NCBI GenBank assembly: GCA_008632985.1
Contig: QPGO01000029.1
Location: forward strand, 198,874-262,873
Source of the DNA: Psammoneis japonica
Taxonomy: Eukaryota
Direction: 5' to 3'
Length of the DNA stretch: 64,000 bases
Below the pieces are notes generated by a model that saw only the letters and a program-made list of their open reading frames with translations, did no database searches and was not told the DNA's origin. Both the position numbers and the translations under genes were made by a program. Of this stretch, positions 23,068-64,000 are shown one piece after another (position 1 is the stretch's first letter; each line of letters starts with the position of its first letter).

Positions 23068-23081
23068 TGTTGTTGTTGTTG

Positions 23082-23121
<40 letters not shown>

Positions 23122-23222
23122 GCTGTTGCTGCTGCTGTTGCTGTTGCTGCTGCTGTTGCTGTTGCTGTTGTTGTTGCTGTTGTTGTTGTTGTTGCTGTTG
23201 TTGTTGTTGTTGTTGTTGTTGT
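23068..23222. repeat. Compound (GTT)n/(GCT)n microsatellite
   Basis: Directly visible; produces spurious poly-C/L/N/T ORFs. Confidence 0.95.
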
Positions 23223-23232
23223 CAACCACAGT

Positions 23233-23994: not shown

Positions 23995-25000
23995 TCAATT
24001 CCCACAGTCTGCATCATCTGATTTTGCCAACAAATGATCATTGTCAGGGCAATCCATTCTCACATGCCCAACCTCACCACATTTCCAGCATCCAATCAGC
24101 CTTTTTTTGTTCTGTGCAAAACTTGCACCATCAGGTTTCTTGTTTTTGGTCCTGCAAGCATCCAACACCTGCAATGCCTCCTCAACTGAGTTGAAGCCAC
24201 AACATGTCAACCCCCAAGGTGAGCTGCAAACATGGGTCTTTCAAGACGTGCCAATGTTCCGTGGCACCTTCCACTGGCATCACCACCAACAACTTGTTTC
24301 TTTCTTTGTTCTGGGTGTTGTCAGCATCCCTGCTGAACCCATCTTCTTTCTTGGCAATTGCTTCTGGGATGATCCCATCACAAGTTGTTTCTGCTGCTTC
24401 CACCACACTCATGAGCCAACTGCAGTGATCTTGAACAAGTGCCTCTCCTTCATCTTGACAAACAAGTGCCAGCTGCTTTGTCCAAGCCTTGACCATCTGG
24501 ACATGTCTTCTCATTTGCACTGAACAAGATCAACTTGAGAACATCCAGTGGTGCTGCTGCACCCCACTCCTTCATGACTCTAGTTGACTCCATCACTCCT
24601 TTAATTTTGTGATGGACGGCCTGCTGCACACATTGCCCACAACAACATCAAATGCCTTTGCCTTTTGCATCTTGCAGATTGCATTCTGTTTTGCATGGTG
24701 GCTGCATTCCTTGCCTTGGATTGCCTTGTCCTTCTCAGACATGGTGATTCCCGATGGCAAGTGCACTGGCTCTTTTGGGGTTTCTCTCCTGGATGCCAGC
24801 ACCCGCATCTCTGGCCTGGGCATTCTTCCAACATGCTCACCAATCTTCTTTGTGGTTTCCATGCAACCATCTGCATGTCATCCTGACTTGGCAATGGCAT
24901 CATGCACCCACTTCTTTGAATCTTTCATGCTTGTGCACTCAGCTGTGTCCTTGCCCATCTTTTCTGGGGGGGATTGCTTTTGAGTTCCACAGCTCACCAA
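23995..25000 (-). pseudogene. Degenerate Ty1/Copia (CoDi-like) gag remnant
   Basis: Zinc knuckle CWKCGEVGHVRMDC and upstream gag-like segment TTKKIGEHVGR...EMRVL...QKAKAF. Frameshifted. Confidence 0.7.
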
Positions 25001-25310
25001 CAGCTGTGCACTCTGTCTCACCAACCCCAACACAGCTTTTCCACCACACCCTCCTTCAGCAGACCTTTGACAGTTTCTTCAACAGCAAGGCTCTCCAGAG
25101 ATTGCTTCTTTGCCCTCATCCAGCCAGCTTGTTCACTTTGTTTTGCCAACATGAGGCAGACCTCTGGATTCCTGTTGACTTCCCAGCCCACTCCTTTGAA
25201 CTCCTCTTGACTTCCCAGCCCTTTTCCTTTGGTGGATTCCTCTTGACTTCTTCCCAGCCTTCTGACAACACCACTCCTTTGAGTGTCATGTCATGCCTTT
25301 TTGGCTTCTG

Positions 25311-25552
25311 TGTTGGAGTTTTGTGGCTTGCCAACAAGCACACATTCAGTCTCACCAACTCCTGACTCGCCGCGCAGCTTGCAAACACATTGCTGTTGCT
25401 GTTGACCACTGTCACCAGGCTAAAAAGTGAGCATGAGACCCACAACTCAAACCAAGTTACAGTTCCCACATTCTCCACAATTGTCAGTGCATCTTTCCAT
25501 TGCAACTTTGTCAGTCTGTTCTGCAAAAACCACCAACCCCAATGTTCCAACA
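25311..25552. repeat. LTR-like repeat, copy B, 242 bp with inverted termini TGTTGGA...TCCAACA
   Basis: Perfect 7-bp inverted ends with TG..CA, lying upstream of the minus-strand gag remnant. Confidence 0.7.
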
Positions 25553-25859
25553 CATGCTGGATCATGCAGGCTGAGTGCCATGACTGTTGAGACACTCGGG
25601 TCAATGTGTTGAGCATGTGGCACACACCAGAAGGGCCACATGGCTCTGAATGCCACATCAGTCGAGACACACAGGTCAGTGTTTTGAGCATGTGGGGAGC
25701 TTTTGTTTTGGTTTTGGTTTTGTTTTGTTGTGCACCAGTCTGATGCAAAGCTTCACAACAAGCAATGTCCAGGCCACAGCAGCCCTTTGACAATGCAGAA
25801 TGCAGCATGAGGATGCATGCACACTGTGGTGCAAATGTGACCAGCTGTGTCCCCACAAT

Positions 25860-26560
25860 GATTGGGGCACAGCTGTTGGTGTTGGGCGGGCCAGCATTGG
25901 AGCAGCTGATGTCAAATCAGTTGGTGGCACTGGAGTGGTTGGCACTGGAGCACAATTTTGGTGTTTTTGCAGCTGGGTGGCACTGGTGTGGTTGGAGTTG
26001 GGTGCTGCTGGGCCAGCCAGTGCTGAAGACCAGCTGGCGCCAGTGCTGGGCTGGACAAGAACACTGGAGCAATTTTTTGTTGCAGGTCAGCTGGCACCAG
26101 AGCAGCTGCTGGAGTCCAAGCAGTTGGCACTGGAGCAGCTGGCATTGGAGCAGCTGTTGGCAGCTGGCACATTGGGGCAGCCATGGTGGCACAAGAGCAG
26201 CTGGCACATTGGGTGCCAGAGCAGCTGGCATTGGACCAGCTGGTGTGATGTTGGGCCAGCTGGTGCTGGTGTCAGGCTGGCCAGCACTGCAGCAGTTTGT
26301 GTCAGACCAGTCTGCTGCATCCGAGTGCTGGAGTGGCTGGCATTCTTGGGCCAGTTTGTGTTGGAGCAGTTGGCACCAGACACCAGTTGATGTCAGAGCA
26401 GTTGGCATTTTGAGTGGTGGCTGGTGCCAGGCCAGTTGGTGCTGGACCAGCTGGTGCTGGACCAGCTGGCATTTGGGGGTTCTTCATTGGACTGGCTGGC
26501 ACTGGGCTGGTTTGCACTGGAGCAGTCAGCGCTGGAGCAAATGGAATTAGAGCCAGCTGT
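25860..26560. repeat. Degenerate short-period tandem repeat (units like gcagctggcactgga)
   Basis: Recurrent cagctgg/ttggcactgg/gagcag words over about 700 bp. Confidence 0.75.
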
Positions 26561-27948
26561 CACTGGATGACTTGGCATTGAAAAACTGCCATGGTGCCAA
26601 ACAGATGGCCTGTGTGAACAAGGTGCAGGGCAGGAGCAATCTTTGCTGCCCAGACAAGAACAAAACAGGCCACTTCTGCCCTGGAGTGGATGCAGAGGAA
26701 ATGGATGACAACAGCTTGTGTTGTTGCTGTGCAACAAAACACAACTTCTGCCATGAAAGCTCTTGTTCATAAAAAAATTGCTTGTGCCATGACTGATGAC
26801 TGCCTCAACAAATTGGAGCTGAACAAAACACGACTCTTTACAGGAAATTCAGCAGCCAAAACTTTGTTGAAAGGATTTTGTGCACACTGAAATAAAACGA
26901 TCAGTCTCAACAAAGCAGAGTTGAAGAAGATGTGCACTCTCTTCACAGGATGTGTTCAGCACCTGGAACTTCATGTTGAAAGGATTTTGTGCAAAGCTCA
27001 AAAAGGGCAGTGACCACCATCAATGAACTGGAGTCTTTGACAAAATGTGAGTTCTCTCAAACATTCAGCAGCCAAAGGTTCATTGAAAAATTCTTGCATG
27101 CACTTTGAACACAAATGGTCAATCCATGCCATGGAAACTTTGACACAATGTCAACTCTCTTTGTCTGGTGGCTGTGTGCAAATGGAGCAGCTTTGTGAGT
27201 GATTCCCATGTCACCCGTGGATGCATGTGACATGGATGTGATCAAAGCTGATGCACACAATTTCACTCAACAGAGTTTCAAAAATGCAGGCTGGTTTAAA
27301 TTGTTTGTTCATGTGCAGAGTGAACCCTCACAAATTTTTGGATTTGATGATGTGGAGTGTTTCTGGGAAGGTGGGTTTGCAATGACCAGCCAACTTAAAT
27401 GGTTGGGTTGAGCGCAAGCAACCAACATGGCTGTGACAGCAGCCACGTGCAAAGAACTGAACAGAGTGCATGAATGATCAACATCTGGTGGGAAAATGAT
27501 CTCTTCCACAGCTTTGCTGTCTCATGAATTGCAGCATTGCTGCTGAGTGCCATGAGCTGCCAAGCTGACAAAAATGTGAGTGCATTGTTGTTGCCTGGCT
27601 TTCCGACTGAAGAGTGAATGCTGGTTGGACACCACAGTCTCTTGCAAGCAAGAGGAAAAATGCGCAAGTTGCAAGGCTGTTGGGGCCCTGCAGAGCTGCA
27701 ACAACCTGTTGCTGAATTTGAGAAATGCCGCCCCAGCAAAGCTCTGTGTCTGCTGGGGCTGGCAATCCTTGCACCAATTTCTTTGTTTGCCTCAACAAAA
27801 TGGCACAGGGTCTGCGGGAAATCACGGATTGAGGCGAAAAACGCACACAAATCTTGCAGAAATGTGACGAATGCGGGTCTGGTCTCACTTGTCTTACGGA
27901 CGCCTGCCAGGTGGGCCCAAGCTGTCGAAGCCAATTGCATCTACAACA

Positions 27949-29311
27949 TCAGGCTAGAGATTGCAAACTGCGCTGTTTAGAAAAACAGAACAATGCCTGC
28001 AAGCAATCATCATCATCTTTGAGGTTGCCCTTGCTGTCCGAATCGGAGTCCATGTCATCACAGCCGCTGACGTGCTCTCCCGCCGCCGCTGCACGTCCGC
28101 ACTGTGCCTCACGACTGCGCCTCGCTTCCTTCTTGGCAATTGCGGCATCTAGAGGGGACTGACCAAGAAACTTGATCCTTTCAACTGCCTTGCCCTCTTC
28201 TGGTGGCTTCTCCACCACCACCAGCTCCATCGAAAGGAGCATGTGACCTTGCGCCTGCTCCATGGGTTCTTCGTTGACATGAACAAATGCTTCGAGCTTC
28301 CAACCGGCCTTGCTGCTTGCAGAATAAAAATCACTCTCACAGGGGAATGGAAGGCGAACAGTGTGGGGGCGGCAGAGAACCATGCGGCGTTTGCCGTTGC
28401 CAACGGTCTCTTCAATGCCTTGAGACTTGAGCAGCGCCTGTCCGGCTTGCTCGATTCCGCTTTCCTTCAGGACTTGGTCTTCTGTAGAGAGCCTAGAAGC
28501 AAGAACAGATTCGCGCACACGATCCTTCTTAAACATCCAAGAAGGGATGCGCTCATTGATGGTCACCTTGGTGCTGCAATCAGACACCTTCGGGTGCCAG
28601 TGTGACGTGGTGAAAGGCAGAACAAGGACATCCACAGTCACGTGCATGCGCTTGTCGGACGCCGCCCATGGAGACGCTAAGAAAAAGTAGCCACACTCAC
28701 GAGTCATCGCTCCCTTCTTCACAAAGGCGTCTGCCTTCTTGTTGCTCCCCACCTTCTTCTTGCCAGAAGACGAAATCGTAGCAGATGACTTGAACTTTGA
28801 CGCGAGGTCGTTGTTCACGTCTTGGGACTTCTTGGGGGCAGTCTTTGTCTTGCCCGGCACACTGGTGCCAAATTCCTCGTCACTTGAGCACGCGCCTTTG
28901 TCTTCTGAGGATTCGTCTTCGGTTTCCTCTTCCTCGCTCGACTCCTCTTGGTCTTTCACTTCTTCCTCGGCACGTCGCTTGGTGCCTGTGGCAAGTCTTG
29001 CAATCAAAGCAGATGCCGGCAGACGATGGCACGAGCACAAGAACAACAAAACAAGCAAGAATGGCATTGTTGTGGTGCTTGCCTTGCTTCCGCCTGCCTG
29101 CAAGAAGTTCGTCGACTTCCAACTGCTTGCACTTCTTGCGGTGCTGCTGAGCGAAAGTCTGGCACTTCGGAAGGTCACTGAAGTGCTTCTCACATGCCTT
29201 CTTGACGTGTTGCAAGTCAATGAGCTGCGGATCAATCTTGCCAGCTTTGACAAGCTCTGCAAGCCTTTTGTTGTGTTCTTTCGTCCAACGAGCAGAGCTG
29301 CCGTTGCTCAT
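27949..29311 (-). pseudogene. Harbinger accessory ORF (N-terminal helical domain, possibly Myb/SANT-like, then acidic tract); inferred intron 28986-29082
   Basis: Exon 1 MSNGSSARWTKEHNKRLAELV joins in frame to GTKRRAEEE through a GCAAGC..CAG intron. Lies inside the TIRs. Confidence 0.65.
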
Positions 29312-30081
29312 GGCGTTCGTCGTGGCTTCCTCCTGTTGTGGGTTGTGGGCCGTGTTGAGTGTGCCGTGTGAACAGCAAACAGCAGAGCTGCTTTGGTTTT
29401 TCTGAAACGATCGATCAACAAAACCGACACCAACGGACAAATGGCGCGATCTCTAGCATGTCTCTACGACGAACTCGTGAAAACGACATTTTTGTCACAC
29501 ATTTTTGGGCCCCCAATTATGTGGGCTATTTGGTTGCGTCACAGCTTTTCGACAAAAAACTTTGATGGCGCAACTTTGGCTTTGCATGTAACCCGGACAT
29601 TGCGCAGAATCACTGCCAGCAGCTACGTCACACAAAGACCCGGATGTAAAGCTTTGGTCACAGTTTTTCACTGTACATCCGGGTTCTCTAAGCTCGTGTA
29701 GAAAGTGCACTGAGAATCCTGTGGGATTGAAGAAGAAACCCGGATGTGCAGCGAAATGTCTGTGGCCACAACTTTCCGTTGAGCCAAAGTTTTGTCTCAC
29801 TTTCTAAAAATGTGTGGCAGAAAATGCGCGAGCTCACCTAAAAAAAAATGCGTCTTTTCTGCGCAAGAGCTGCAAAAACATCCAACTGCATCACGTCGTG
29901 CACCTGGCCAAACGAGAGATCTGTGCATCATGGAGGTGGCATCCCACGTGCGCACTGCGCAGCAGTGCTGCTACAGTCCACACTGGAAGACATCCCAGTC
30001 CCACCAATCGTTGAGATTTTGTTGTTGCGCTTCGCGCTTCATGCTGAGACAACATCATTTTGCTCCGGCCCGCCACTCGCC

Positions 30082-31084
30082 ATGGCCGCTTTTCAACCAG
30101 ACAAAAAGAGGATGTGCTGGCTTGCCCTCGGACTGCAGGACCTCATGAATTTGGGGCGTGGAATGATGAACAGAGGCGACAAGAAGTTTGGCGCCACAAT
30201 GACCGAGGACAGGCATTTTCGTGAGTTTTTTGGTTGCGGCCCAATCGTGGCTCTCACGCTGTGGAACCTCCTCGTCCACCACGATGTGCTGCCCCACGGA
30301 GCAAATGCCTGCCACATGCTGTGGGCACTTGATTTTTTGAAATCTGATGGCAAGGAAACTGACCTTGCCGGCAAAGCTGGGGGAGTCGACGAAAAAACTT
30401 TCCGAACGTGGAAGTGGCCAATGATTGAGGCCATTGCATCACTCGAGCCACACTTGGCAAGTGCCCAATTGTGACAATGTTTCCACATGTTTCAAAAAAT
30501 TGATTCTCACCCGCATCATTTGTGTTGTTGTTTGTTCTGCCCAGACAATTTGGGAGAATCGCCGCACTGGTGATGTCGGAAACGATTGTCTGGTTGCTGT
30601 GGATGGAACAGACTTTCGTGTCCCGAATCACGGCAGGAAGTTTTGCTCTCATAAATTCAACGACTGCGGACTTCGTTACAAAGTGGCAGTGTGCATTTTG
30701 ACCGGTCACATTGTGTGGATTAATGGGCCCTTTGTGCCCAGCGTGTACAACGACTCAGACATTTTTCGATCGGCATTGAAGACGGAACTGGACAAGGGGG
30801 AACGCGCAGAGGCTGACGATGGGTGCGTGGGTGAGTCCCCCATCTGTGTTAAGTGCCCCAGCAGTTTTGCAAACCCGAAGGAGATGGAAGAAATGCAGAG
30901 GCGTGCTCTCAATCGACAGGAGATGTGCAACGAACGCTTCAAAAATTGGACAATTCTGGAGAAAAGGTTTTGCCACAAACCGCTGTCGAAGCATGCCGAT
31001 GCATTTCGGGCTGCAGCTGTCACAACACAGCTTGCGATTCAAAATGGTGAACCGCTTTTTAATGTAGATTACAAGGATCTATAA
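30082..31084 (+). pseudogene. Harbinger DDE transposase, mutated; inferred intron 30457-30544
   Basis: VDGTDF, SHKF..GLRY.V, WINGPF, EADDGC (expected DDGY), RQEMCNERFKNW. Phase-0 intron GCAAGT..CAG. Confidence 0.85.
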
Positions 31085-34000
31085 TTGGACAGGACAATTT
31101 TCTTTAGAAACATTGTTTTTCTTTGTTCCAGCCCTGCGAACAGACAGTGAACCAAAGTTGGTGCCATCCATGGCAAATTGGCATCCACCAGTTGAAGGTG
31201 TCAAGCCTGGCACAGCACCAATGCTTGGCGACGGCGCAGGGACTCGACGGCTTTCACGACATGCCGCAGTTTCCGATTCTGAGAACATGACAGTGCGCAA
31301 GGCAACCTCAAAAGCAACAATGAGCATTTCTACAAAGGCCTGGGCACTGTTCTCTTTTTGTAAAACAGCACAGTTCGTAATCTCCAGGCTGAAATCGCAC
31401 CGGTGCTGCTGCTAGATGCAATGTGTTGTCACACCACTTCTGACATTTCTGCTGTAGATTTTTTGCGTTTTTCGCCTCAATCCGCGATTTCCCGCAGACC
31501 CACACAGAAGTGAGCGCAAGTGCACGCATGTGTGGATCAAATGTGCACATTCCCATGTTGACAACATGCTTTGGCTGCTGTGCACACACATGGAGTTGGC
31601 AAGGAATGGAAAGCAGATGCACCACAACAATTCTCAAATTTGGCATGAGCACCTTCACAAGCCTTTTCCAGAAATTTAAAATCTCATGCCGGGTGCAGTG
31701 GAAGCACCTGCTGCATGACAAAAGCACCATGGATTTCAACCTTGCAACAGCAGCAACAATGTTCTCAGTGTCACACAGTTTTGCTTCTTCGCTTTGCTGT
31801 CATTTGTGCAATGCAAGGTGTGCCAATCTGAGTCCCCTTAGAATGCCCCAACCACTGATGTGTGCCACATCAAAATCCCCCAAATTTGATCAGCATTTGC
31901 TTGGTCCCTGCAAAACAGCTGGCTGTGTGATGCCAAAGTGTCCAACACATCCAGAAAAACCCCGTCACGGGAGGCAAAATGTTGCAAATCCAGTGAAGAC
32001 AAGCCTTGGCCTCCCATTCTTGACAACTGACCTGGGAAGACTGAAACACATGGGCAGTGTGCCTCAGGCATCAGATCTTTGGCATCAGGACCAGCAATGC
32101 TGCGACAATGCCCAAATGTCAAAATCACAATTCACAGTCAAAAATTGTGCACACCCAGCTGCACCAAACTGTCTCACCTGCAGCTCCCTCAAATTGTTCA
32201 AAGTGTTTGTGCAATCAATTTGACCATCCCTGTCCAACAGCATCCTCTGTGTGACAATCAAATTGCCCACAATGCAGTGACAACAAATGAACAAAACAAA
32301 CCCCATGCAGCACACGAGTTGCCAGAAATGCAAGTTTTTCAAATCCCAAGCCACCCAAATCCTCTCAAATGCCAAACTTGCACTCTCTCTCAACCAGCTT
32401 TCCCCACTCCAAACACACAATGCATGCATCATGACACCTTCACTCTTCCTGCTGTTGCCCAGCTTCCTGACCTCATTTGCTTGTGCTGTGCCTCAAGAAC
32501 CACTCCACCATTGTCAGCTGTTTCTCCACCAACAACAGCCAGAGAAACAAGCCTGCACAGAATGCAAAGGGCATCACCCACAACAAACTCAAATGTCCAG
32601 TGCTCCCAGCTCCCATCTCTCCAACATTTTGTTCAATGTTCCAAAACACAGACAATCATTTGTTCACTTGAATTGCCACATCCAAACATCTGAAACATCA
32701 GCTGCATGCCCCACTCCATTCCTCTCAGCACAATCCAGAAAACACAGCAGCTCCCCTGCTGATGCAAGCAACACCACCCACACCCAGCCAGCGCGCCACC
32801 GTGCGTGGCACCATGTGGCAAAGAGAGCCAATGAAATGGGTCTTTTGAAGATGATGACAATGATGGTGTGGTGACACAACAACAAAACAGGACTTCAGAG
32901 GAGCAGCACAACATGGGTCAGTGTGCAGCAAGGGGGCGGGCGCAAAAGGCTGGGAGGCAGCAGCAAATGATGGCTGCAGCAGTGCAGACAGGGGCAAAAG
33001 AGCAACAATGACAATGAGTGCACAGCAAAGAAGTGGTGGTGATTGCAACAGCCAGGATGAAGACAGTGAGGTCAATGACAACAGGCAGAAAGAAAACACC
33101 GAGAGAGAGAAAAAAGAAACAAGTGAGAAACCCAGAGCCCACACAAACCATCATGAAACAGGCTGCTGCACCAGCAAACACAAAACTGAGCTGGCAACAT
33201 CATCCAGACAACTGACTCCAGGAAAACCCAAGCACACTTGAAAACAAAAACAAGCTCTCAGCTGGGCGCTGCAGATGCGTCATTGACTTTCAAACATGAG
33301 AGCAAAGATTGTGGTCAAAAACCAATGTGTGGTGTTTGTGGGTTTGACCCAGGGTTGATGACATGGTTGATCAAATTCTGTGGGGCTGAACATTTTTGCA
33401 TTTGGAGCAAGAAATCCTGCCACCATGGTGGAACAACCACATCTTCCCCCCCCCCTGGCTGTGTAGTGCGGCGGCGGCGCTGCTCTGGGTTGACATCTCT
33501 GGCTGCTGGCACTCCTCATCTTTGGCTCGAGACACTCACAGCAAATTGACCAGTTGGCTTGTGATGATGTGAGTTTGTTGGTGACATGCAAAATGACTTT
33601 TCCAGTTGGCACAGCTGCAAGACATTGAAGTCCAACGATTTTTTTGGGCATCGCAGCGGCTCAGAGTTGTCGTGTGTTGCCGCCGTGCCTTTGATGCCAA
33701 AAGCTGCCTCTGATGAGGACACATCAGGAATGAAACATCACAAAATTCTGGTTTGTTCTGCACAACAAAGTAACTGAAAAGTGATGTGCTCACTTGAGGA
33801 GCTGCACAAAATGTTGCTTTCAACTCTGGACAGCACCCGCGCACAGACATGGCCAAATCAATCGTGCCAAAAAAACGATGGCGCCGTCACCAGAGTTGAT
33901 TCGCGGGCGCTCGCGTGTGCCTGCTCACACGAAGGAAGTTCATCGAAAGTGAAGACGATTCCGCAACATTATTCATTTGCAAAGTTGTATAAAAATGAAT

Positions 34001-50706: not shown

Positions 50707-51912
50707 TCACTAGATAACTTTTGAAATCCCTGGTTTATGGAACGATGCATTCGGTGAGTTGAGATAATTAATTCAAAACAGACAGTGCATTCAATGACAA
50801 GTACTTACTGCCACAAGCCAAACAAAGGCATCCACAATGAATTGAGCCTGAGTTCGTCAATAACTAAAGATTTTACTCGACAATGTATCGCTCAAACCGA
50901 GCTGCAACAACTTCGATTGAAGCAATGTAGTATACCAGCAGAAATGTGGACCTTCAATCATACCGGTAGAGTACATCATTGTTGACTGCGCTACTCGTGA
51001 TGGTTGTCAACCATATAGCAACATTTCAAGCAATAATCATATACGTCGTATTATATATAACACATTCCCAACTTGTCGTGAGCCAAATCTTTGTCGTAAC
51101 GGCGTAGTACGGCGCCGTGAAAACACGCCATTGTGCTGCGTTCGTCTGAGTGCTCTGGTCGCGGCTGCGGTCGCTGCAGTCGCGGGAGTCAGCAATTTTT
51201 GTATATGATCTACATGTCATTTATGTTTTAATTATCTATCTGCACCGTTAAGAATGCCGTATGCACTGGTATTAATTCTACGTATGGAAGTGATACACAT
51301 GCTTTCAATTATGGATAGAAAATATCGCCAGTTAGGATAGAAAAAAGGTGGGATAGAAAAAAGGCAGGATAGGATAGAAAAATAAATAGGAAGGCCGCGC
51401 AGGAACGTGTACCACCAAGCATAATTGCTGCTGAGCTGAACTGAAGGAATTGCCTGCGATCTGTCAAACTGTCGTTGGATGGAATATGTGGTTCTCCGGG
51501 AACCCGTTTTACACCTTCATCAAAGGCATCATTCAGGTTGTTTCCTGAGGATGCCCAACGTGCTGTGTTGCACGAGTTTCTCACGCCATCGAACGAGGTT
51601 CGCAAGTCTTTGAAAACGCCCACGGGGCTTTGGGAAAAGCTTTCAACATTGCAGAAAATGCCAATAACCCAAATTAAGGTTGTTAAAGTAAAAGCAGCAG
51701 ACAAGTGCCGTAGAACACCCCCCACCGCCATTGTTCCTCCGATCGGGCGCAGGACAATTTGATTTTTGACAGAGCTGATCCTGACGTGCGCCACGCCGAC
51801 ACGTGGCACAATCTTTGCGTAGAATTCTACGACGAAAATTTTGAAATATCCTGAGAAAAAGATTCCGTCCACTGTTTTCAGTCACATCGACAACGACGAC
51901 ATCAATGCCTCT

Positions 51913-51987
51913 CAGACCCACGAAAAAATGATGTGTTGTCTCAATGACACCATGAATGAAAACATTTCTCATTTTTTCGTGGGTCTG
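51913..51987. repeat. Perfect 19-bp inverted repeat with 37-bp spacer
   Basis: CAGACCCACGAAAAAATGA (51913-51931) and its reverse complement (51969-51987). Confidence 0.9.
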
Positions 51988-52561
51988 GGATGTTCTCGCA
52001 TGAAATAGAAGTCGCATTCGTCGACTGATGACAACAGTGGTTTGGAGCAATGAAAAAGATTTGCGCGGTGAAGTGTGCACAGCACACATGGTTTGTGAAT
52101 TCAAAGTTCCAGATTCCAATTTTACGACGCACACCCAAGTGAATTTGACACGGACAAACAAGCTCACCGTTCGCCTGGTCAAACGCCAAAACTTTTGACG
52201 CAAGATAAGCCATGTGCACTGGCACTAAATTCACACACAAAAATTACGTAGAAATTTTCCTAAAAATCAGGGTTTGGGCCGATTTCGCTCGCCAGAAATG
52301 AGCGAACGTCGCCAAAGGCCACCTGTCCACTGCCCACCATGACGACTTTTCCCGTTGCTGCCCACCCACACCCTGAATTGTGCCATCAAGGGACGGTCAA
52401 TGTTTGCTGATGCATGCCCCCAGTGGTTCATTGCACTGAGATGGGCAAAGCAATTCGATGGCATTGCATCTCGAAGTGCCCGGGTCTTCGTCACTCGCGA
52501 GAATGCAACTTCGCACGTGCATCGGAGTTTGCAGATTGACCGATCCACGGAAACTTCCTCT

Positions 52562-52928
52562 TGCACTGTGCTCGAAGAACGAGTGCAAACGAAAGTAGAG
52601 TGGTGTGCGAAAAGTGGAAATTATAAGATCAAATTTTGCTCTGTGATTTTTGGTTTCTCCGAACGAGTTCTCAATGGCCCAAAGCTTCTGCACTGCTTCT
52701 GCAGACAAAAGGCCTTTCGGAGAATACATTCGTGACAACAGATTGTCCGGATGTGATTGCTGTTGACACGCAAGATGTCAACATCGTCAATCGATCGTAT
52801 TTGCAATTCTCGACATCCGATCAACTCTGTGTGATCGTTCTGTCCTTTGTGCGCATCCACGACTGTGGTGCGATTGACGTGTAAATGACATGCAATCATG
52901 GGCATGTGTGTGACAGTCGCACACTGCA
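52562..52928 (-). repeat. Gypsy 3' LTR
   Basis: Ungapped match to 56919-57285. Confidence 0.93.
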
Positions 52929-55900
52929 TTCGCCTCCCTAATTGCACATTGGAGTCATTTGTAAGTGGACCATTCGACGGACATCAACAGTGTCAACAAT
53001 GTCTCCACTTTCACTGCACTGTGCCATCAGCAATGACTGTTGTTGTTTTGTACAGGCAACACAGGGCCGTTCCAATTTCCGAATGTCTTTTGAGAGTGAC
53101 ATTGTTTGTTTCTCACTTAACATGCACACACACAGTGTTGCGTCGAGCATTCTCATTGACGTTCTTGTTGATGTGAACACAAGGACCAATTGTCCTGGAG
53201 CAAGTGTTTTCCTGATGTCGATTGTACATGGCATCGTGCCCAGCACTTAATGTGCGCTCTTAATTGTGGCGTTCACTTGCTTGCTTGTGGATTTCATGTA
53301 GTTTGGCGGGCTCACTTTATGTGCCACATTGCTCTGCTGCACTGCCACGTTTCACAAGCAACAACAAACGATGGTCAAAGATGTTGTGACCATTTCGTCT
53401 TGACAATCAATCCTGTGATGGTTGTGAATTCCATCATGGATTTTTTTTTGCACTTCAACCATCTATCAGTTGGATTTTAATTGTCATTTGGATGTTTCTT
53501 TCTGACATGCCGGTGTCATTTTGTCATTCCGAAGGCACTGGTTTCGTGCACTGAGTGGACAAATGTCCATTTTTCTTTTCTTTTTCTAGATCTTTGGCAC
53601 ATCTCGTGTGTCGACATGATGTGTGTTTTAATGTCTTGCCTCGTACATTGTACAACACAACCGTGCGGGTGTTGTGAGATTGTCTTTTGCCAGTGTGAAG
53701 TGGACACGTACAATGTGTGCCAATCTGTCACTGTTTTTTCCTAAATCGTCCTTTAAAAAGGCGATTTTATCCTTGTGACATGAGCATTTTTCGATCTCGC
53801 TCGCCTCCACGAAAAGTGTTCGTATGACATGTCGCGTCCGACAATTTGGAGGGAATGTCTGTGTCCCGTTTTAACGGCAGGACATTGTCGTAGGATTCAA
53901 TTTTCCACAGCAAGTCGGCTGATCGCGTCTGTCGCGACGATGTTCGCCTTGCCCTCGTTGTGTTCTAATTCGGGACTGAAGTTGTCAACGTGTGACTTTG
54001 TCCGTTGTGTCTTGTGATCCGTTCATGCACAAATCTGTTGGCCAAACAGCACATTTCGGAATTTTGTGAGTGTTTTCACCATGGACAGAAGTTCTTTTTT
54101 CTGTTGCAACACATGACATTGTAATCCGTGTGTGACAACAACACAGTTTTTGATTTGATGCGCTCCACATTTTCGGAGACTTTTCGTTCCGTACTTGCAC
54201 TTTTGCCGTTTGACCTTCATTGAGGTGAATTTGGCTAGCATTGCACAGGAGATCGTTGAGACTGCATGTCTCGACAATGGCAACGTATGACAACGAGATG
54301 TCGCAGTGTTCTTTGCGTTTTTCTCGTGTTGCGATTGGTTGAATCGCCTCCATTTTCTTTGCAATCGATTGCATGTCGTTGCGCATGGAAGTCTTGACAG
54401 TTCATTTCAAGTTAAACAGTGAAGGACTTTTGTTGTTGACCTTCTAAGCAACTGTTCCAGTCGTTTGAATGCCGCACCAAGCTGTTGCTTGTACAGGTGA
54501 CATTTTGAAGTTACTTTTGTCAGGCACAAACGATCACATGCAGTCGTTCTGACAACTTCAAACCTGTCATGAGTTCACTCAAGTGTTGCACAAAAATGTC
54601 TGGGGCTCCACAGATTCTCATTGGAAGTCCACAGCACTCATTTTCTCCCCACGGCATGATTTTCGTGTGAGCACGACGTGTGCTTTTTTCATTTGACATG
54701 GTGGCATTCCATGTTTGAATCAAACAGATTGCATGCATGAAACGTTCTTGCTTCAACGGCATTTCCTGAATGTTGGGTAAAGGATGCACCACCTGCACGA
54801 ACCTCATGCCAAGCTTCTGAGTGTCAGATGCGGTCGAACTCGACCTGTTTTCTTTGGACAACGAGTCTCAGAGTGACTCATTCAGAGCAACTTCATTCTT
54901 GAGACTTCAATCTTTCACAACAGGTCAAACTCCTTTTGATTGGACGCCTCCAAAGACTGTGACAGGAGAAGGTTCTCACGCGTCGTGGAATCGCGTCAGA
55001 TTTTCCACGATGAGATCCACTGATGCTTCCCATGCATTCGTCTGAGGAACTTTTCAAAACGATTTCAACCTCTTGAGAAGAAGATTGAGTTGGTTGTGTT
55101 CATTTGGGTCAGATGCATCGCCGTAGTTGTCACTTGATTAAGATCGATGGCGTGACAATGTGAGTCGAGGACCATTGGCTCCGTTATTGACTCTGTTCAC
55201 GGCGTCACATTTTTCAATGTGATCGGTTTTCAGCTTGAAAACATCGGCGTCGAAGAGTGTGTGAACATTCTTCATAAGGTGATTGCTTCTTCCCATTAGA
55301 TTTCTTCATTTGCGTAGTCCAATGTGACTTGCAGGACTGGACATTAAGTCACGTCCCATGATCGTGTCATTTGAACCTGAAGAAAATTTGGTGTTTTCAA
55401 CATGTGATGTTTGCACGTCAGCATGCCTTAAATTTCGCATGGTGAGAACTGAATTCGGTGTTTACTGTCAGTCGTAAAGAGCTCACCCTTGGTTTCCCAA
55501 GTTTTTGGTGGCGGATTCTTGTGTTCTCAACTTTCGCACGAATTTGCGCAAAATTGTGGTTGACGATGTTCCGTTGTCGATGGGAACACGTAGATGCTTT
55601 TTTTTTTTTTCCTTTCCCAAGGAAGCATTCATATAAATGATGACTCCTGGACTAGCATGAATTATTTCTGCCTTTTTTCTAGGCTTCCTAATGTCCAGTA
55701 AAGCACACAATTCGTGAACAGACCAAAATTATTCTTCGGATTCAGTCTGGATCATCCGATCAAATTGGTGTTTTTCTTCACTGAGGGCATCAGAATCTGA
55801 TTCTTTGCCCCCATGCTCTTTTTCTTTGTTCAAGGAACTCGCTTTGAGTGTTTTTTGAACCGCCTGATCAATCATGACGTTCATCTCTTTTTTTGCGAGC

Positions 55901-56918
55901 GGCATTTTCGTTGTCGCGACGCGACCGCGTGCGATTGCCATTTGAACGGCGCATTTTTGGGTCTCTTTCAGAGTCACCCTTGCACTCTTTTGCTAGTTCA
56001 TTTTTAGAATGGCTTCAATCCGTGATGTGGGTGTTCTTTTTTCAAAGACAAGACCTTGCATTCACTTTGGATTGTTCTGGTACCATGTGGGAGACCATTT
56101 TTGGAACCAAATTTGGAACCTTTTTTATTTTGGAACCAACTGCGCTGTCAGAGCCTGAGTTGATATGTTTTTTCGTCACGGACGTCATGAACGACCTTTA
56201 GATGACTCAAAACTTAATCAGCTCATCAAGGATGAGTTGCAACAGTTGATTGTTTTGGACAGTAGACTGATGCTGCCATCCTTGCGGTGCGAGTGATAGC
56301 TGATAAATCAGCGCTCGGTTTCCCGCTAGATTCGACTTAGAATCCATCTGAGGGTCGCATGGACTCTCATCATTGACCTCTTGGGTCTAACAGAGGCTTT
56401 CTTGCTGTCAAGCAGCTCTGGTTTCTTCAGGTCGTCTCGAAAATAATTTCCCTGATTCTGAAGTGCATTTCCTCGGAGGACATGAGTTGTGAGACGCTTG
56501 AGGTACTTTCCAACGATTCCCTCTTGCTCCTTGAACTCGAGGATCATCGATTCGGTCTCAAAAAACTCTCCAATGGTCTCTCCTTGCATGGTAGACGTAT
56601 TTCTCGGATCTGATCGACTCGGAATTTGCATTCTCTGCAACCATGACTTGGTGTAGATTTTTTGATAATGCGGTGTGCTTGAGAGCCCTTGATCCTTGGG
56701 TGCTTGGAATAGACCGCATTGGAGTGAATCCTCTTGTCTGGTAGACGAAAAACAGCGTTCCATCTTGAGGTGCTGCTCGGCTTGAGCTTCTTCCGCTCCG
56801 AAATCGATTCCAGCAGAACTGATGCGATTCGTTCCTGTTTATAGAAGAATTTGCAAAGGCACACTAGTTAAAATTTTCATTTTCCGTGCTTTTTACCTTC
56901 TGTGGTGTGTGTGCACAA

Positions 56919-57285
56919 TGCACTGTGCTCGAAGAACGAGTGTAAACGAAAGTAGAACAGTGTGCGAAAAGTGGAAATTATAAGATCAAATTTTGCTCTG
57001 TGATTTTTGGTTTCTCCGAACGAGTTCTCAATGGCCTAAAGCTTCTGTGCTGCTTCTACAGACAAAAGGCCTTTCGGAGAATATATTCGTGACAACAGAT
57101 TGTCCGGATACGATTGCCATTGACACGTGAGATGTCAACATCGTCAATCGATCGTATTTGCAATTCTCGACATCCGATCAACTCTGTGTGATCGTTCTGT
57201 CCTTTGTGCGCATCCACGACTGTGGTGCGATTGACATGTGAACAATGTACAATCACAAATGTGTGCACAACAGTCGCATGCTGCA
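56919..57285 (-). repeat. Gypsy 5' LTR
   Basis: Ungapped match to 52562-52928. Confidence 0.93.
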
Positions 57286-59079
57286 CTCTGCTGAGAACTG
57301 CTTGCAACCAGACAAGAATTTGGGTGTCTTTTGGTGATTCAGATTTGGGTGGAACCGTGCCGTGTCGGCGAAGCCCCGATCAGAAAGCATGCTGTGCCCC
57401 TTTGGACACTTTTTCAGTCGTGGTGCCCACAGCTCGACCAGAGCTTTCTCTGACACTCGTGCAAGGAATGGATCAGTGTGCTCAAAGGAAAGTCCCGCTG
57501 GTGTAGACCAAGAGATGCAACGGACGGCACTGGCAGGTGCTTTCTCTGAGCGACATGCTCGTGTAAAAAGGGTGCTCTTCCGGGGCGCGCACATTTTGAA
57601 GTCTTTTCCGTCAGGCACGGCGCCAGTGTTTTGCATGTTCTCATCCTCGCAAGCTTGAGGGCAAGTTGCATCAAGGAATTCAGCACTTGTGTCTAAAATT
57701 GAAAGATCCTTGCTGGCCTCTCCCCACTTCTTGATCCAACAATTGACATGCCGACCGACGGTTGTCCTGTCGAATTTTCCCCACATGTGGGCCAAGGACA
57801 TTGTGCTGTGCGGTCCATGAATGTGAAGCTTGGCAAGAAGACAGCCCTCAAATTTTGTTGTTCCATCTTTTCCATTTGGAGGAGCAGCTGGTGGCTTAAG
57901 ACCAAACAGGCCGTGGACGTAGAGCACACAGTCCTTCCAAGTTTTAAATCCGAGATGATGGCGCGCTGCGTCTGGATTTGCAGCATGCCATTTCTTGCTG
58001 GTGAGTGATCGACGAGAAAGACCAAGGTCGCAAAGAGCCAGCTTTTCATTTGCTTGTTGCATGAGGAGCTGCACTTCTCTCATCTTTTGTTTGATTGCTT
58101 TTTCTTGGTGCTTTCGTTTGTCAATGTGTTCCTTTTCCCTTCTCGTGCACTCAGCTTTTACGTCTTCTGTCTTCTTCTGCAGCTCACTCTCCTTGGCCTC
58201 CAGTTGTTGCTTGAGTGCCTCAAGAGTGTCTTGCTTTGCGGCAAGTTGGTTGGTGGCGGAGTTCACAGCTGCCCCCTTTCGAGTGATGGCGGGGGCATGG
58301 AACTGTGTTGCCGATTCGATGGCAACTTTCTGCTCCAATTCATCTGCCGAGCATTTAAACTGTGTGGCTGGGTGGTTTGGAAGTGGAAAGCATGTTCCGT
58401 CATTTCGAGGCAGCTTGTCGGCCTCGGCACAAGCCAGGCCAATGTTGTTGAGCTTGAAACCGACAGACCTTGGAATTGATTCTGGTGCTAGCTTCCTCTT
58501 TCCGTCGGCTGACACTTTGAATGGATTGTGTGCATCCTCTGGAAAATGAAGAGATGCAAACACATGCTTTGTGTTGGATGAACAGGATGGATCCTTGACC
58601 CTCTCCTTTGCTTTTGGACCAAGTTGCTGAAGAAACCTGGCTCGTCTAGCTGCCTTTGTGTCACGGCCGAGCTTCACAGCCTTGGGAACATGGCCAGTCT
58701 TGAGTTCCTCTTTTGGTTCTGCTGGAAGTGTGAAGCAATTGTGGCGTTCAGGACAAACTGTCAGCAGTCTCGCCATTTGAGTGTCACAGTCTGGGTTGCC
58801 ACAAACACATTTCGTTTGAGATTTTGCGTGTCGCTTTGGTGTGGTCCACGTTTTGTGTTTCGCCGATGACTTTCGCACAGGCGACTTTGCATCGCTGAGG
58901 GTGGCGTCTGGTTCAATCTCCGTCACGGCGCGCTTGGATTGAGAGCGCGTTGTCGCGGGCATGGTGACAAAGCTTCACAGATGCAGCAGCAACCAATTGT
59001 GGCTTTGAACGACCAGATGCTGGACTGCACACATTGACAGAGAGTTGTGTCAGGCATGCTGCCAGTTGGAAAGCGAGCG

Positions 59080-59306
59080 TTGCATTAATCGCACTGCCAC
59101 GAACGCAAGTGTTGCATCATTCGCACTGCCACGAACGCAAGCGTTGCATCATGCACACTGCCAGGAATGCGAGCGTTGCATCAGGGCCACTGCAAGAAAC
59201 TCGAGCGTTGCAATGGACTTTCAGGAGGTGTCCTTGCTGTGCATCCACTGCCAGAAACTCGAGCATTGCAATGGACTTTTAGGAGGTGTCCTTGCTGTGC
59301 ATCATC
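59080..59306. repeat. Tandem repeats (about 32-bp units, then two of about 58 bp) between the divergent transposon genes
   Basis: Recurrent cactgcca.gaacgcaag.gttgcatca and gcaatggacttt.aggaggtgtccttgctgtgcatc. Confidence 0.85.
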
Positions 59307-59405
59307 CATTGAGAAAATCATTGGATGGCACTTGTCGCCAAAAAGATTCGGTGCTCTCTTTCCGCGATCTTGCGTTCTCACTCATGCATCACACCGCACC
59401 ACACG

Positions 59406-61919
59406 ATGGGAGCAAACAAGCTTTCAGCTCTTCTGCGGTCGGCTCATGATGCCAGCGACAAATTTGCAGACAATGCCACCATCAAAGGAAAGGTGTTCGG
59501 ATTCGATCTAAGCGTCCTTCTCCATCAAGCCATCAATGGCATCGAAGGAGCAAGCGACTTTCACATGCAGCCGCCAATGCCTGTCAGACAGGTTGACGTG
59601 TTGTGCCGAAAACTCATTCGACTTGCGCGAGAGGCAGAGGTGACGTTGAAAGTGGCAGCAGACGGAGCGCATCATCCCGGAAAAGCTGGCGAAAATGAAA
59701 GCCGTCGAGCTGAGCGACAAGATGCATTGGAGAAGTTACTCGACTGCTTCGCTCTTCCAAACCCAGAACAGCACCACGCAGAAGTCGAGAAAGTGATGAA
59801 AAAGGCGGCTTTTGTTGGAGAAGATGCGATTGCTCAAGCTGTCAAAATGTTCCAGGAGGAAGGCATCGACGTGTTTGGTGCCCCGTTCGAAGCCGATTTT
59901 CAACTGGTGTTTTGGGAGTTAAAGGGCGTGACAAATGGCGCCATCAGCATCGACTCTGACATGTTTGCCATGGGGTCAATGCTGTTTGTTGACTTGCTCA
60001 AGCTTCGAACACAGGATGGAAAATGCAAAGCACTTGTCCGAGATGATGCAATGAAGACGGATCGATTTGCCGAAGGGAGCAGCGGGTGGTCACATGACGA
60101 CTTCCTCACATGTTGCATTCTCAACGGATGCGACTTTATCCCGAAGCTGTGCAATCTTCAGAAGAAAGAGATGCGATCATTCATGAGCAAGTGGGTTGCA
60201 GCTGATGCAACAACAAAGGACAGCATGTTGATGGACCTTGGCAATGAGCGCCACTGGCCGCCAGGAAAGAAAAAAGGTGGAAAGCTGGCGACGGACTGCC
60301 TGGCATGATTCAAGACAAGCATGGCACTTTTCATGCACTCGCCCGTCATTGACATTAAAGAAGACGGCGCCCATGTTCTTGTGCCAATGCGACCTCTCCC
60401 AAATGACGAGGCATCATGGAATTCACTCCTTGGACACAATCCATTGCACTGGTTCTCTTTGAACAAAATTCCTTTCAAAGATGCATGCGAGCTCAATGTG
60501 TGGGCTCGCACTGGGAAGCCACTTGAAAGTCTTCCTCTCCCACGAGACCCCGACGACCCAGAGAGGGAGATCCCATTTGGATCCATTGTCGACTTTGATG
60601 TCATGCCTCTCCATCACTGCCGGCATTCCTCTCTCTTGTTGTGGCTGTGCTGTCATGGCATCCCGCATCCAAAGGGTGCCAGCATTGCTGAGCTCGTAAA
60701 ACAAGTGCAACTCGCCGTAGAGGTTGGACGACCACTGGACTGTGACCGAATCGCAGTGGAGCCTGCCAACGCGGCACAGTCATGCACATCATGGGAAAAG
60801 CTGTTTGTTGAGACAGAGCTTGTCTGGAATGATTCTCTTCAGGATGCCCTTCAATTTATGCGCAGTTCTTCGATCCCAGAGGTCAACATGGAACACATCA
60901 ATGACACATTTGGAAACGGAAAGAATGGCACAAGAGAGTGTGCGTGGATGAGATGCACCAGCGGACACCTTGACATTTCTGCGCTCCGGACTGCAATCAC
61001 ACAGCTGCAAAACATAAAAGGCAAGGTGAATGTGGTTGATTTCAAAGTCACTCCGAGCATGAAGAGCGAGACATGCGGAGTTTACCTTGCGTTCGCCGAG
61101 AACGGCACATTTCTACACGACGCCTCAAAGTGCAACTGCCCCAATGGATGGTTGTTCTGCAGCCACATGCTGGCAGCATTTCTTCTTTTATTTTTGATTC
61201 AACTGATGTCGGAATGGACTCCTGAGGATCTGTCGCACTTTCTGCCAGAGCCAATCAAATCATTGCAATCTGCACCACTTTCTGCAGAATTCGTGTTCGT
61301 CGAGATGAAAGCCAAGGATAAAAACGAGAGCAACAACAAGAGCAAGAATTCAGAAAGTAAAGAAACAGATGAGGAGCGAGAAGAAAAGAAAAGGGCCGCT
61401 TGCACAAAGCGAGTGGGGAAAGTGCTCGCGAAAGAAGTGAAGAACTACACCCGAGAGACGAATGAACGAGACACGGATGAACGGGACGAGCGCCTTGCGA
61501 CAGAGGACGATGTGAAGAAGGGAAAGAAGGATGGTGACATTGAGAGCATTGACCCATGTGCAAGGCTCCGCAAACACTTGGGAGACAGCAATGCTGCAGC
61601 CAGCATTGCCGCCGGGAAAACTCCGAAGGGGAAGGTGTCAGGGAGCGCCGTCCAGGAGCACAACAAGAAACTCGTCTATGGAGAAGAAAGCGTTGAACGG
61701 AAAATTGAAAAGATCAGATGACACAATCGACTTCATAACATGATGAAGGACAAACACATTTCAAACGACAACTCAATCTTTCATCACTTTGAGCACTTCG
61801 AGAAGCAGCATCAAGAGGATGCAGCGCGGCCAAAACAACAACTTGGAGGTGATGACATGTCTCTGCCCGAAGAATGCGACAAAGAGTTCATGGACGAATG
61901 TTTTAAGGAGGGTGGTGGT
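59406..61919 (+). pseudogene. XPG/FEN1/EXO1-family 5' nuclease fused to a SWIM-type zinc finger; two in-frame TGA stops; truncated by the Copia insertion
   Basis: MGANKL, FGFDLSVLLH, ADG..HPGK..EN..RR, APFEADFQL, SIDSDM, ILNGCDF, CNCPNGWLFCSH. The three ORF pieces are in one frame. Confidence 0.82.
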
Positions 61920-62258
61920 TGTTAGATTCACAGTCTTTAACACACAGACACTTGCATGTGTGGGGGTGCTTTGTTGCAGCGGATGAAGCTCATGGTTCGT
62001 TGCTGCGTTTTGATGCTTGTGTTGGTCGAGACACAGTCCTGCAGCTGAGCAGGATGGACAAGACCTCGGAGGTTGGCAGCAATGTGAATGGCGACAGAGG
62101 CAAACAGACGCTTGTTGAAAGTCGTTGTCTAGAAAATTATGATGAATGTCGTTGCTTCTGTTTGAATCGATTTTGTGATGAGCTAATTGTTTCGAAGAGA
62201 AAATCTGAGTCTGGGTTGCAGTCGTGAGATGCAACCAGAATGACGTTGAGTCGTGACT
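61920..62258 (-). repeat. Probable 3' LTR of the Copia element
   Basis: Follows the purine tract GAGAGGGAG on the minus strand and ends ...CTAACA exactly where the nuclease ORF breaks. Partner LTR is outside the window. Confidence 0.7.
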
Positions 62259-64000
62259 CTCCCTCTCAACCGAGAGAGCTTGCCAGCCCACAAGAGCCTT
62301 TCTAGCCGTGCGGAACGCATCGGTCCGTAGTCCCTTCGTGAACTGATCGGCTAGTTGCTCTAGAGTGCTGACAGGTTGGATGTCGATCTCCAATTGTTCG
62401 ACTTTAGTCCTAAACCAGTGGCAAGGGATGCCGATGTGTTTGGTTCGCGGAGACAACTTGGGCATGTGTGCGAACTTGAGGCACGCGGAGTTATCTTCGT
62501 ACACAACGGACGCAGGTGGGACATTCTGCTCTACAGGCGAGTCATCGGTGCCTTGGGTTGCGAGCTCAAAAGCCTTGGAGTGAGTCGTGACAGGGTTTTG
62601 GCGGTCAGACTTTCCGAATGCGTGGTGGTTGAGCTCCTTGAGAACTTCACGAATGGGGATGAGATCGCGCACAGCTTGAGAAAGTGCGACACACTCCGCT
62701 TCCACAGTCGACAATGCTGCAAGAGTCTGCAGCTTGGACACCCAGATGAGCGGGCAGCCGGCGCAGTAGACAAGGTGTCCAGTCCTGGACTTGACAGAAA
62801 CTGGGTCTTGACCATCTTCCACACCAAATGACCCCGCGAAGTCAGAATCGACGCAACAATCAACTCGATGATCTTGCACAGGCTTGAGAATGAGACCTTC
62901 AGCAGCAGTTGCTTTGAGGCATCGGAGCATCCACTTCACTGCAGCAGCGTGGGACGCTCGGGGCGCAAACGAGAATCGAGCCACTTGATGTGTGGCATGT
63001 GCAATGTCTGGCCGGCTGTTCGCTGCCAAGTGCATCAACATTCCAACAACTGAGCGACAATCGCAGGGTTCATCAAAAGGCAGGCCGTCCGTGTCGGCAC
63101 CAACAGCCGCAGGCAGAGCTGGAGCAGATGCTCCATTGCAATCCTGCATCTGTGCGGTGCGCAGGACCTTGTCAATTAGACCGGGTTGAGTGAGTGGAAA
63201 TCGACCCTCGGAGAGCTTTTCGATCTTGACACCGAGAAAGTCACCGACTTCTCCTTCGTCTCTAAGTTCAAACACGTGGCGATGTTCGTCATCGGAGACT
63301 CCTAACTTGCGAATTTCGGCTTCTAGAGCTTCAGCTGAAGCTCCAGCAAAAACGGTGTCGTCGACGTGCACCACACACATCATGCCCTCTTTGAAATACA
63401 AACAGGGATCTGTGGCTGAAGGCACCCATCCGCGCTCGGTTAAACCAGCTCGTAACTTCTCGTAGAAGCCCTTGGGAGACTGTTTTAGGCCGCACAGTCC
63501 TTTCAAAAGTTTGAGAACCACACTGAGTCCCGACCTTGGCGCAAATCCCTTCGGCGGTGTTGTGCAAACTTCCTCGGCGACATCAGCTTGGCAAAAGGCT
63601 GTGGCACAGTCCACCTGTCGTGTGGTCCATCCCTCCTTTAATGCCGCAGTGAGCATGAGTCGGACACTGGACCATTGCACAACCGGCGCGCAGGTTTCGA
63701 AGTGGTCGACTCCTTCTTTCTGCAAATCACCGCGGACGCAGTGTCGGGCCTCATGCTTGAGAGGGGTTCCATCTGGGAGTCTCTTGAGCTTCAGCGCCCA
63801 TGTGCCTGGAAGTGCATTCATGTGCGGCTGACGCTCGACTGCTTTCCAGGCTCGACAATGTGTGAGTGCGTTGACTTCAATTTTCATCGCCTCAATCCAT
63901 TCGTCAGCATCCGGACCTTTCAGAGCATTGTGTGACGAAGGCATGTCAGGGTCCTTGGTTTTCTTGCTAGCTGCGCAGGCTCGTGGATCGCCGACATTGA
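61920..64000 (-). mobile_element. Ty1/Copia (CoDi-like) retrotransposon, RT and RNase H region, mutated, running off the window
   Basis: VRGDLQKEGVD, GLKQSP, DPCLY, HVDD (for YVDD), SRPDIA, DSDFAG, SRTG, STVEAE, EDNSAC, RTKHI, ADQFTK. Confidence 0.95.

Follow-up and report, generated by a model that had tools for sequence, protein, structure and literature searches.

The window analysed here is a 64-kb stretch of a contig of the diatom Psammoneis japonica (GenBank assembly GCA_008632985.1, contig QPGO01000029.1, positions 198,874–262,873), and all of the results were obtained from this single window. It consists of host DNA interrupted by two blocks of transposon DNA, and the second of these blocks ends, at the right-hand border of the window, in a long open reading frame (ORF) that carries the remnant of the pol gene of a Ty1/copia retrotransposon. 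We describe the substitutions in this Copia frame, in particular the replacement of its conserved Tyr residues by Cys and His, together with the dinucleotide composition of the blocks, a pair of long terminal repeats (LTRs) from a second element, and a DNA transposon with terminal inverted repeats (TIRs). The coordinates of these features are collected in Table 1.

Table 1. Features of the 64-kb window, with positions numbered from its first nucleotide
Feature	Position	Strand	Basis or remark
Hypermutated block 1	~20300..33800		Dinucleotide profile
Nested DNA transposon with 43-nt TIRs (27808-27850 / 31459-31501), 93% complementary	27808..31501		TpA ~0.15, CpG ~0.8
Hypermutated transposon block 2	51600..64000		TpA 0.05-0.4, CpA/TpG 1.3-2.2, CpG mostly normal; left edge sharp
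LTR copy A of degenerate LTR element	52562..52928		Weak RT_RNaseH trace near 54.1 kb (-)
LTR copy B of the same degenerate element	56919..57285		Compared with copy A
569-aa open frame, no known family, Tyr 0.2%	57253..58962	-	Within TpA-depleted block 2
XPG-I nuclease / CxC..CxH frame, 798 codons, one in-frame TGA (60306-60308)	59325..61721	+	Pfam and sole relative
Open frame, 741 codons, uninterrupted	61773..63998	-	TGA at 61773-61775; open at window end
Read-through extension, 168 codons, into presumed 3' LTR	61773..62279	-	TpA observed/expected 0.17; ends with TGA 61773-61775
CAA (Gln) at former stop, directly after ..GW	62280..62282	-	47/49 relatives terminate exactly at ..GW
Ty1/copia pol remnant (reverse transcriptase and part of RNase H)	62283..63998	-	Pfam RVT_2 and alignment; truncated by window end (64000, inside pol)
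CAC (His) replacing Tyr of the reverse transcriptase catalytic YVDD	63366..63368	-	Tyr in 46/49 relatives; both Asp kept

The Copia frame matched the Pfam family RVT_2 over residues 50–295 (E = 5.6e-33; 115 bits against a gathering cut-off of 31.6). A search of a protein collection returned 300 relatives. Among the best 120, which were listed, the closest was 60% identical to the query, and almost all came from marine or other metagenomes and transcriptomes. The first 573 residues of the query were aligned with 49 of the 120 listed relatives, which were picked by hand at a query coverage of at least about 98% (71 were omitted), and a column was counted as conserved when at least 80% of the 49 relatives agreed (n = 234). 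The query differed from the relatives at 34 of these 234 columns. All 12 conserved Tyr columns were altered, nine to Cys (TGY, where Y is a pyrimidine) and three to His (CAC), whereas 200 of the 222 other conserved columns were kept (Fisher test, 12/12 vs 22/222 altered: p = 1.3e-11). The conserved Pro, Gly, Asp, Arg, Ala, Gln, and Cys columns were retained completely, as were all invariant Asp, Glu, and His columns of Copia pol, and the worst class other than Tyr was Ile, at 60%. When Tyr was required in only half or more of the 49 relatives, 18 columns qualified, at which the query had 11 Cys, 4 His, 1 Trp, 1 Val, and 1 Tyr. The relatives themselves retained the 12 Tyr columns at a median of 92% and a minimum of 58% (n = 49), and the Cys or His of the query was found in none or one of them per column. 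The overall composition followed the same pattern: Tyr made up 0.70% of the query vs a median of 3.33% in the 120 listed relatives, Cys 3.66% vs 1.60%, and His 3.66% vs 2.41%. No Tyr-depleted protein was found among the 120 listed relatives, in which the minimum was 2.26%.

These results agree with the initial annotation, made from the sequence alone, which had described an ORF with Cys or His where the Copia reverse transcriptase and RNase H normally have Tyr. The His codon of its HVDD motif, placed at 63366–63368, was exact; the catalytic YxDD of the reverse transcriptase is thus replaced, and the copy is a member of the family by descent but probably not an active one. Of the motifs that the annotation had listed, DIAHA is not diagnostic, the relatives having Tyr (20), Phe (20), or His (8 of 49) at that column (334). 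The unusual residues might have been shared by active relatives, or the substitutions might have lain outside TA-containing codons; neither was found, with sharing limited to 0–1 of 49 relatives per column and 20 of the 34 differences falling at TA.

The latter count comes from a classification of the codon changes at the 34 differing columns, based on whether one transition from any codon of the consensus residue could yield the query codon. Single TA>TG or TA>CA steps accounted for 20 differences and A>G elsewhere for 2, none was G>A or C>T, and 12 were not single transitions. The 20 TA-type changes comprised the 12 Tyr codons, together with Val>Ala (from GTA), Ile>Met (from ATA), and first-position A>G changes in Met, Ile, Thr, and Lys codons preceded by a codon ending in T. 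All 22 single-transition differences therefore appear as A>G or T>C. The same step would also account for the end of the ORF. The CAA that follows the terminal GW is one T>C (TA>CA) change from TAA, and nearly all of the relatives stop at this point, supporting the earlier proposal that a TAA>CAA change removed the stop. As that proposal also had it, the frame reads on through a purine tract (62257–62267, 12 nt past the former stop) into the presumed LTR, adding 168 codons. A second copy of the Copia LTR was not present in the window.

Inactivation by Tyr>Cys/His in a frame that remains open, as the annotation had proposed, is supported by the sequence, but its regional cause and its scale (~26 kb of the window) had not been recognised. 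For the block statistics, the hypermutated DNA was taken as 20400–33700 and 51700–64000 (25.6 kb) and the host DNA as 1–18400 and 34200–50700 (34.9 kb), with the boundary stretches excluded. The ratio of observed to expected TpA was 0.13 in the transposon blocks vs 0.56 in the host blocks, and that of CpA/TpG was 1.61 vs 1.14 (host CpG, 0.98). Some 500-nt segments of the hypermutated blocks contained no TA at all. The CpA and TpG excesses were strand-symmetric. The depletion is restricted to the transposon blocks, whose edges at ~20.3, 33.8, and 51.6 kb were sharp to within a few hundred bases; the host non-coding DNA adjoining them (18001–18750 and 50751–51500) had TpA ratios of 0.87–0.99.

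Block 1 was nested. The outer parts of block 1 (20.3–27.7 and 31.5–33.6 kb) had TpA ratios of ~0.05, CpG ratios of ~0.14, and CpA/TpG ratios of ~2, such that almost all pyrimidine–purine steps in this complex, non-repetitive sequence were CA or TG. A six-frame Pfam scan of 20–34 kb identified no family, the single match being a sub-threshold, low-complexity one to Mucin. These outer parts may be what remains after prolonged action of the TpA process combined with the decay of methylated CpG, and the loss of CpG in this oldest part may be ordinary methyl-cytosine decay. The TIR element nested between them looks like a younger insertion that is already depleted in TpA; because it has lost TpA but not CpG, TpA loss outpaces CpG loss. 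Block 1 also contains a (TTG)n/(CTG)n microsatellite of ~190 nt (23058–23248), which could be a former (TTA)n tract converted by TA>TG. In block 2, a six-frame Pfam scan of 51–62 kb detected only an XPG_I domain and a weak RT_RNaseH match (E = 0.0063), the latter within the degenerate element flanked by the LTR pair.

The LTR pair provides the timing. The two LTRs of one copy are made from a shared template during reverse transcription and are hence identical at integration, and so every difference between them post-dates integration. In an ungapped alignment with limits set by eye, copies A and B differed at 34 of 367 nt, exclusively by transitions, of which 31 fell in pyrimidine–purine (YpR) steps and only 3 outside them. 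The 20 differing YpR steps comprised 11 with CA in one copy vs TG in the other, 4 with TA vs TG, 3 with TA vs CA, and 2 involving CpG. At each CA-vs-TG site, an ancestral TA must have been hit twice independently, in one copy on one strand and in the other copy on the opposite strand, and overall 29 of the 34 mismatches fell in 18 former TpA sites. The events at the differing sites amounted to nine TG and eight CA changes in copy A and six of each in copy B. The YpR steps that were identical in both LTRs included 20 CpG but 5 TpA; only 2 of 22 CpG sites were changed, whereas most of the ancestral TpA sites were. Thus, after integration and on both strands, TpA decays far faster than CpG or the background. 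At 52900–52903 / 57257–57260, one LTR has TGGGCA and the other CAAATG, with A/G differences over an A run beside two former TpA sites, as if editing sometimes spreads to an adjacent A.

The depletion also depended on the nucleotides flanking TA. Relative to the host blocks, GTAT/ATAC was reduced to 0.05, ATAT and CTAT/ATAG to 0.08, GTAC to 0.16, CTAG to 0.34, and CTAA/TTAG to 0.47, whereas TTAA was not depleted (1.2). By depletion, the preferred nucleotide 3' of the changed A therefore follows the order T > C > G >> A, and among the 29 events inferred from the LTR pair, the 3' neighbours were T in 12, C in 9, A in 4, and G in 4. In the Copia frame and its extension, 27 TA dinucleotides survived, 18 of which lay in CTAG, TTAA, CTAA, or TTAG. 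Since the favoured word TAY encodes Tyr, this residue is struck hardest.

The codon table also explains why the frames remain open. A TA>TG/CA change in TAA yields CAA or TGA, and in TAG it yields CAG or TGG, but no sense codon can become a stop. Consistent with this, TAA and TAG together occurred 5.6 times per 1000 positions in the hypermutated blocks vs 16.5 in the host blocks, while TGA occurred 21.6 vs 19.4 times. Stop-to-stop frames of at least 100 aa numbered 37.1 per 10 kb in the hypermutated blocks vs 21.8 in the gene-dense host blocks, and the 15 hypermutated-block frames of at least 200 aa all had Tyr contents of 0–1.4%, with 0.0% in 11 of them. The concern raised in the initial annotation, that dead transposons of this kind can be mistaken for long Cys/His-rich genes, is thus borne out inside the window. 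The XPG-I frame of block 2 has likewise lost Tyr. Its sole relative in a large protein collection is a complete 756-aa ORF from a transcriptome (46% identity), and it retains only 2 of the 24 Tyr residues of this relative, the lowest retention of all residue classes, with 6 replaced by Cys and 2 by His. By eye, the CxC..CxH motif of this frame is SWIM-like. Just upstream of the frame, four 32-nt tandem units and two 58-nt units lie at 59068–59302.

Taken together, the flagged ORF is probably the Copia pol footprint of a TpA-targeted, transposon-restricted hypermutation that acts on DNA after integration and preserves reading frames. According to this interpretation, the element would have been intact when it was struck by a process converting TpA to TpG or CpA, that is, by A:T to G:C transitions in which the A of 5'-TA, on whichever strand it lies, is changed. 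In the window, the process is confined to transposon DNA and leaves host genes a few hundred bases away unaffected. Tyr codons (TAY) become Cys (TGY) or His (CAY) codons, and the resulting missense changes, including YVDD to HVDD, would cripple the element, while its frame stays open and runs past the lost stop into the presumed LTR.

Several observations weigh against this interpretation. A single transition does not account for 12 of the 34 differences at conserved columns, and 4 Tyr residues remain in the Copia frame, 1 of them in a TAC context at a column where most relatives have Tyr. In the XPG-I frame, 8 of the 24 Tyr residues of the relative are replaced by Phe, which the TA process cannot produce. 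The best Copia relative is just 60% identical, so that the direction of change has to be read from the consensus of the family and another element's LTR pair; the 61 pattern matches obtained when close DNA relatives were sought in metagenome contigs reduced to 1 weak locus (37% identity over 51 residues), which is uninformative on ancestral states. The 5' LTR of the Copia element itself lies outside the window, and the post-integration history of this copy is not seen directly. Finally, the TpA ratio of the host blocks is itself low (0.56), and a genome-wide component is possible.

As to the chemistry, the A of 5'-TAY in transposon DNA may be deaminated to inosine, which would be read as G, by a deaminase of the TadA/ADAT type. 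To our knowledge, all known substrates of TadA/ADAT have U before the edited A34, which would fit the TA rule. Adenine deamination by such an enzyme is what has been proposed for the chlorarachniophyte Bigelowiella natans, where an ADAT2-like deaminase is the candidate named (Mettrop et al., bioRxiv 10.64898/2026.01.13.699255, 2026), and by analogy it appears the likeliest route in the diatom. The same TpA-specific, transposon-targeted DNA process could instead operate on thymine, for example, through an oxidised or modified T in 5'-TA that mispairs with G. Since TA is self-complementary, A>G on one strand cannot be distinguished by sequence from T>C on the other, and if T is the target, the context reads equally well as 5'-(A>G>C>>T)TA. 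However, the sole published proposal found is adenine deamination by an ADAT2-like protein, and we regard the thymine route as unlikely, although it retains a small share of plausibility.

Neutral decay under a genome-wide bias against TpA, in which the Copia copy would merely be old and transposons would not be targeted, finds some support in the host blocks, where TpA is also low (0.56) and CpA/TpG slightly raised (1.14). Nevertheless, it does not predict near-normal TpA in the non-coding host DNA beside sharply bounded blocks, nor an LTR pair that has lost most of its ancestral TpA with only three mismatches outside YpR steps. Nor does it account for a Copia frame that has no frameshift or stop and differs at 22 of 222 non-Tyr columns, none by G>A or C>T. 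We therefore consider it very unlikely.

Editing of retrotransposon RNA from A to I before reverse transcription, by an ADAR-like enzyme with a 5'-U preference, is likewise highly improbable. A UA>UG change matches the known neighbour preference of ADAR (as quoted in bioRxiv 10.64898/2026.01.13.699255), and on the sense strand Tyr>Cys (9) exceeds Tyr>His (3). However, this 9:3 split does not differ from 1:1 (binomial p = 0.15), and the CpA/TpG excess lacks any one-strand bias. Furthermore, the LTR pair, identical at integration, has since diverged through independent TA>TG and TA>CA hits, and the TIR DNA transposon and sequences without any retroelement trace are equally depleted.

A sequencing or assembly artefact, in which a modified base at TpA in silenced transposon DNA causes A to be miscalled as G, is also very unlikely. 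A context-driven miscall predicts the same letter in both LTRs, yet 11 sites have CA in one and TG in the other; moreover, in B. natans (bioRxiv 10.64898/2026.01.13.699255), the same signature consists of real de novo mutations in short-read data.

The possibility that the Cys/His-rich frame is a functional variant, domesticated or lineage-specific and maintained by selection, is the most remote of those considered. Its 741 open codons and the retention of all invariant acidic residues are compatible with function, but a process that makes no stops is expected to leave an open frame without selection, and the surrounding non-homologous frames are equally Tyr-free. In addition, the stop is lost and the frame enters the LTR, and no more than 1 of the 49 relatives shares the residues at any column. 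Fungal repeat-induced point mutation (RIP), which converts CpA to TpA and so gains TpA and stops such as CAA>TAA, was rejected, since it predicts C>T at CpA and an excess of TpA and the observed ratios (TpA 0.13, CpA 1.61) lie in the opposite direction.

Compared with other systems, the hypermutation in the window resembles ascomycete RIP in consisting of dinucleotide-specific transitions at the DNA level that affect only repeats and transposons and leave sharply bounded compositional blocks. It differs in direction, as TpA is converted to CpA/TpG, with a loss of TpA and of stops and with frames left intact. Animal APOBEC3 (C>U in cDNA) and ADAR (A>I in double-stranded RNA, with a 5'-U preference) similarly hypermutate mobile elements by deamination with a neighbour preference. 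Their substrates, however, are replication intermediates, edited on one strand before integration, whereas the diatom process is post-integrative, affects both strands, and has also reached a DNA transposon.

The closest match is the account of B. natans (bioRxiv 10.64898/2026.01.13.699255). Of the 231 mutations that arose during mutation accumulation in an integrated giant virus and a virophage, 230 were A>G/T>C; all of these lay at TpA, and both strands were affected. According to the same text, the mutation rate of the viral inserts was ~1000 times the background, and coding sequences low in TpA were enriched in reverse transcriptase and DDE domains. The two cases share A>G/T>C transitions at TpA on both strands, restriction to foreign DNA, and clustered TpA loss with a gain of CpA/TpG. 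They differ in the host, a stramenopile (diatom) rather than a rhizarian (chlorarachniophyte), and in the targets: in the window, the process has struck an LTR retrotransposon as well as a TIR DNA transposon and repeats that could not be classified, rather than nucleocytoplasmic large DNA virus (NCLDV) and virophage sequences. The depletion here also reaches observed/expected ratios of 0.00–0.05, compared with the 0.45 given there for the NCLDV. The present analysis describes a 3' preference for TAY, the loss of Tyr and of stops, and the resulting open frames. The evidence from B. natans is experimental, from de novo mutations, whereas ours is comparative only. Within diatoms, the Copia frame is similar to the Ty1/copia elements of the CoDi groups (Maumus et al. 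2009, PMC2806351) in having an RVT_2-type pol, but unlike them it is a hypermutated copy; the words hypermutation and dinucleotide do not occur in that article. A literature search covering full texts, with subscription journals and preprint supplements outside its coverage, found no report of TpA hypermutation in diatoms. The B. natans preprint was the one matching precedent found, from another algal supergroup.

The host blocks contain two phosphoglucose isomerase (PGI) genes and genes for a cyclin, VPS8, a fumarase-type lyase, an ABC transporter, and a phosphoglycerate-mutase-like protein. The PGI genes, at 2794–4131 (+) and 14129–15943 (−), lie ~10 kb apart, with the cyclin, VPS8, and lyase genes between them, and the latter PGI gene is a single exon of 604 codons. 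Its named best hits (63–78% identity) are from the diatoms Eucampia, Dactyliosolen, Proboscia, Grammatophora, Seminavis, Cylindrotheca, and Nitzschia. In a protein atlas, the nearest cluster of PGI was dominated by diatoms, and the phosphoglycerate-mutase-like ORF had only bacterial clusters, which were uninformative. The TpA ratio was 0.41–0.59 in ten coding frames of the host vs 0.9–1.0 in the adjacent non-coding stretches. Both codon usage and weak leakage of the TpA process are possible causes of the low host TpA.

The TpA process presumably serves as a genome defence. A wider scenario, which we offer only tentatively, is that diatoms possess an enzymatic defence directed at silenced mobile DNA, in which it edits the A of 5'-TAY, that it shares a common origin with the chlorarachniophyte process and is old within the Stramenopila–Alveolata–Rhizaria (SAR) group, and that it forms a mirror image of RIP, disabling genes through missense changes as their stops vanish and seeding Tyr-free, Cys/His-rich frames that can be recruited. 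If the pattern in the window proves to be genome-wide, a second, distant algal lineage with TpA hypermutation of mobile DNA would argue for a widespread eukaryotic defence over a single-species oddity. LTR pairs would then provide a natural clock of the TpA process, the TAY motif would aid the identification of the enzyme, and the editing of adenine in DNA in vivo would be relevant to base-editor biology. Diatom gene catalogues and protein sets from metatranscriptomes and metagenomes would also probably hold Tyr-poor pseudo-proteins derived from such elements, for which we propose a filter of Tyr <1% combined with a TpA observed/expected ratio of less than ~0.2. If the wider scenario is true, Tyr-free, Cys/His-rich frames would be seeded continuously in diatom genomes, called as genes by gene finders, and available for recruitment by evolution.

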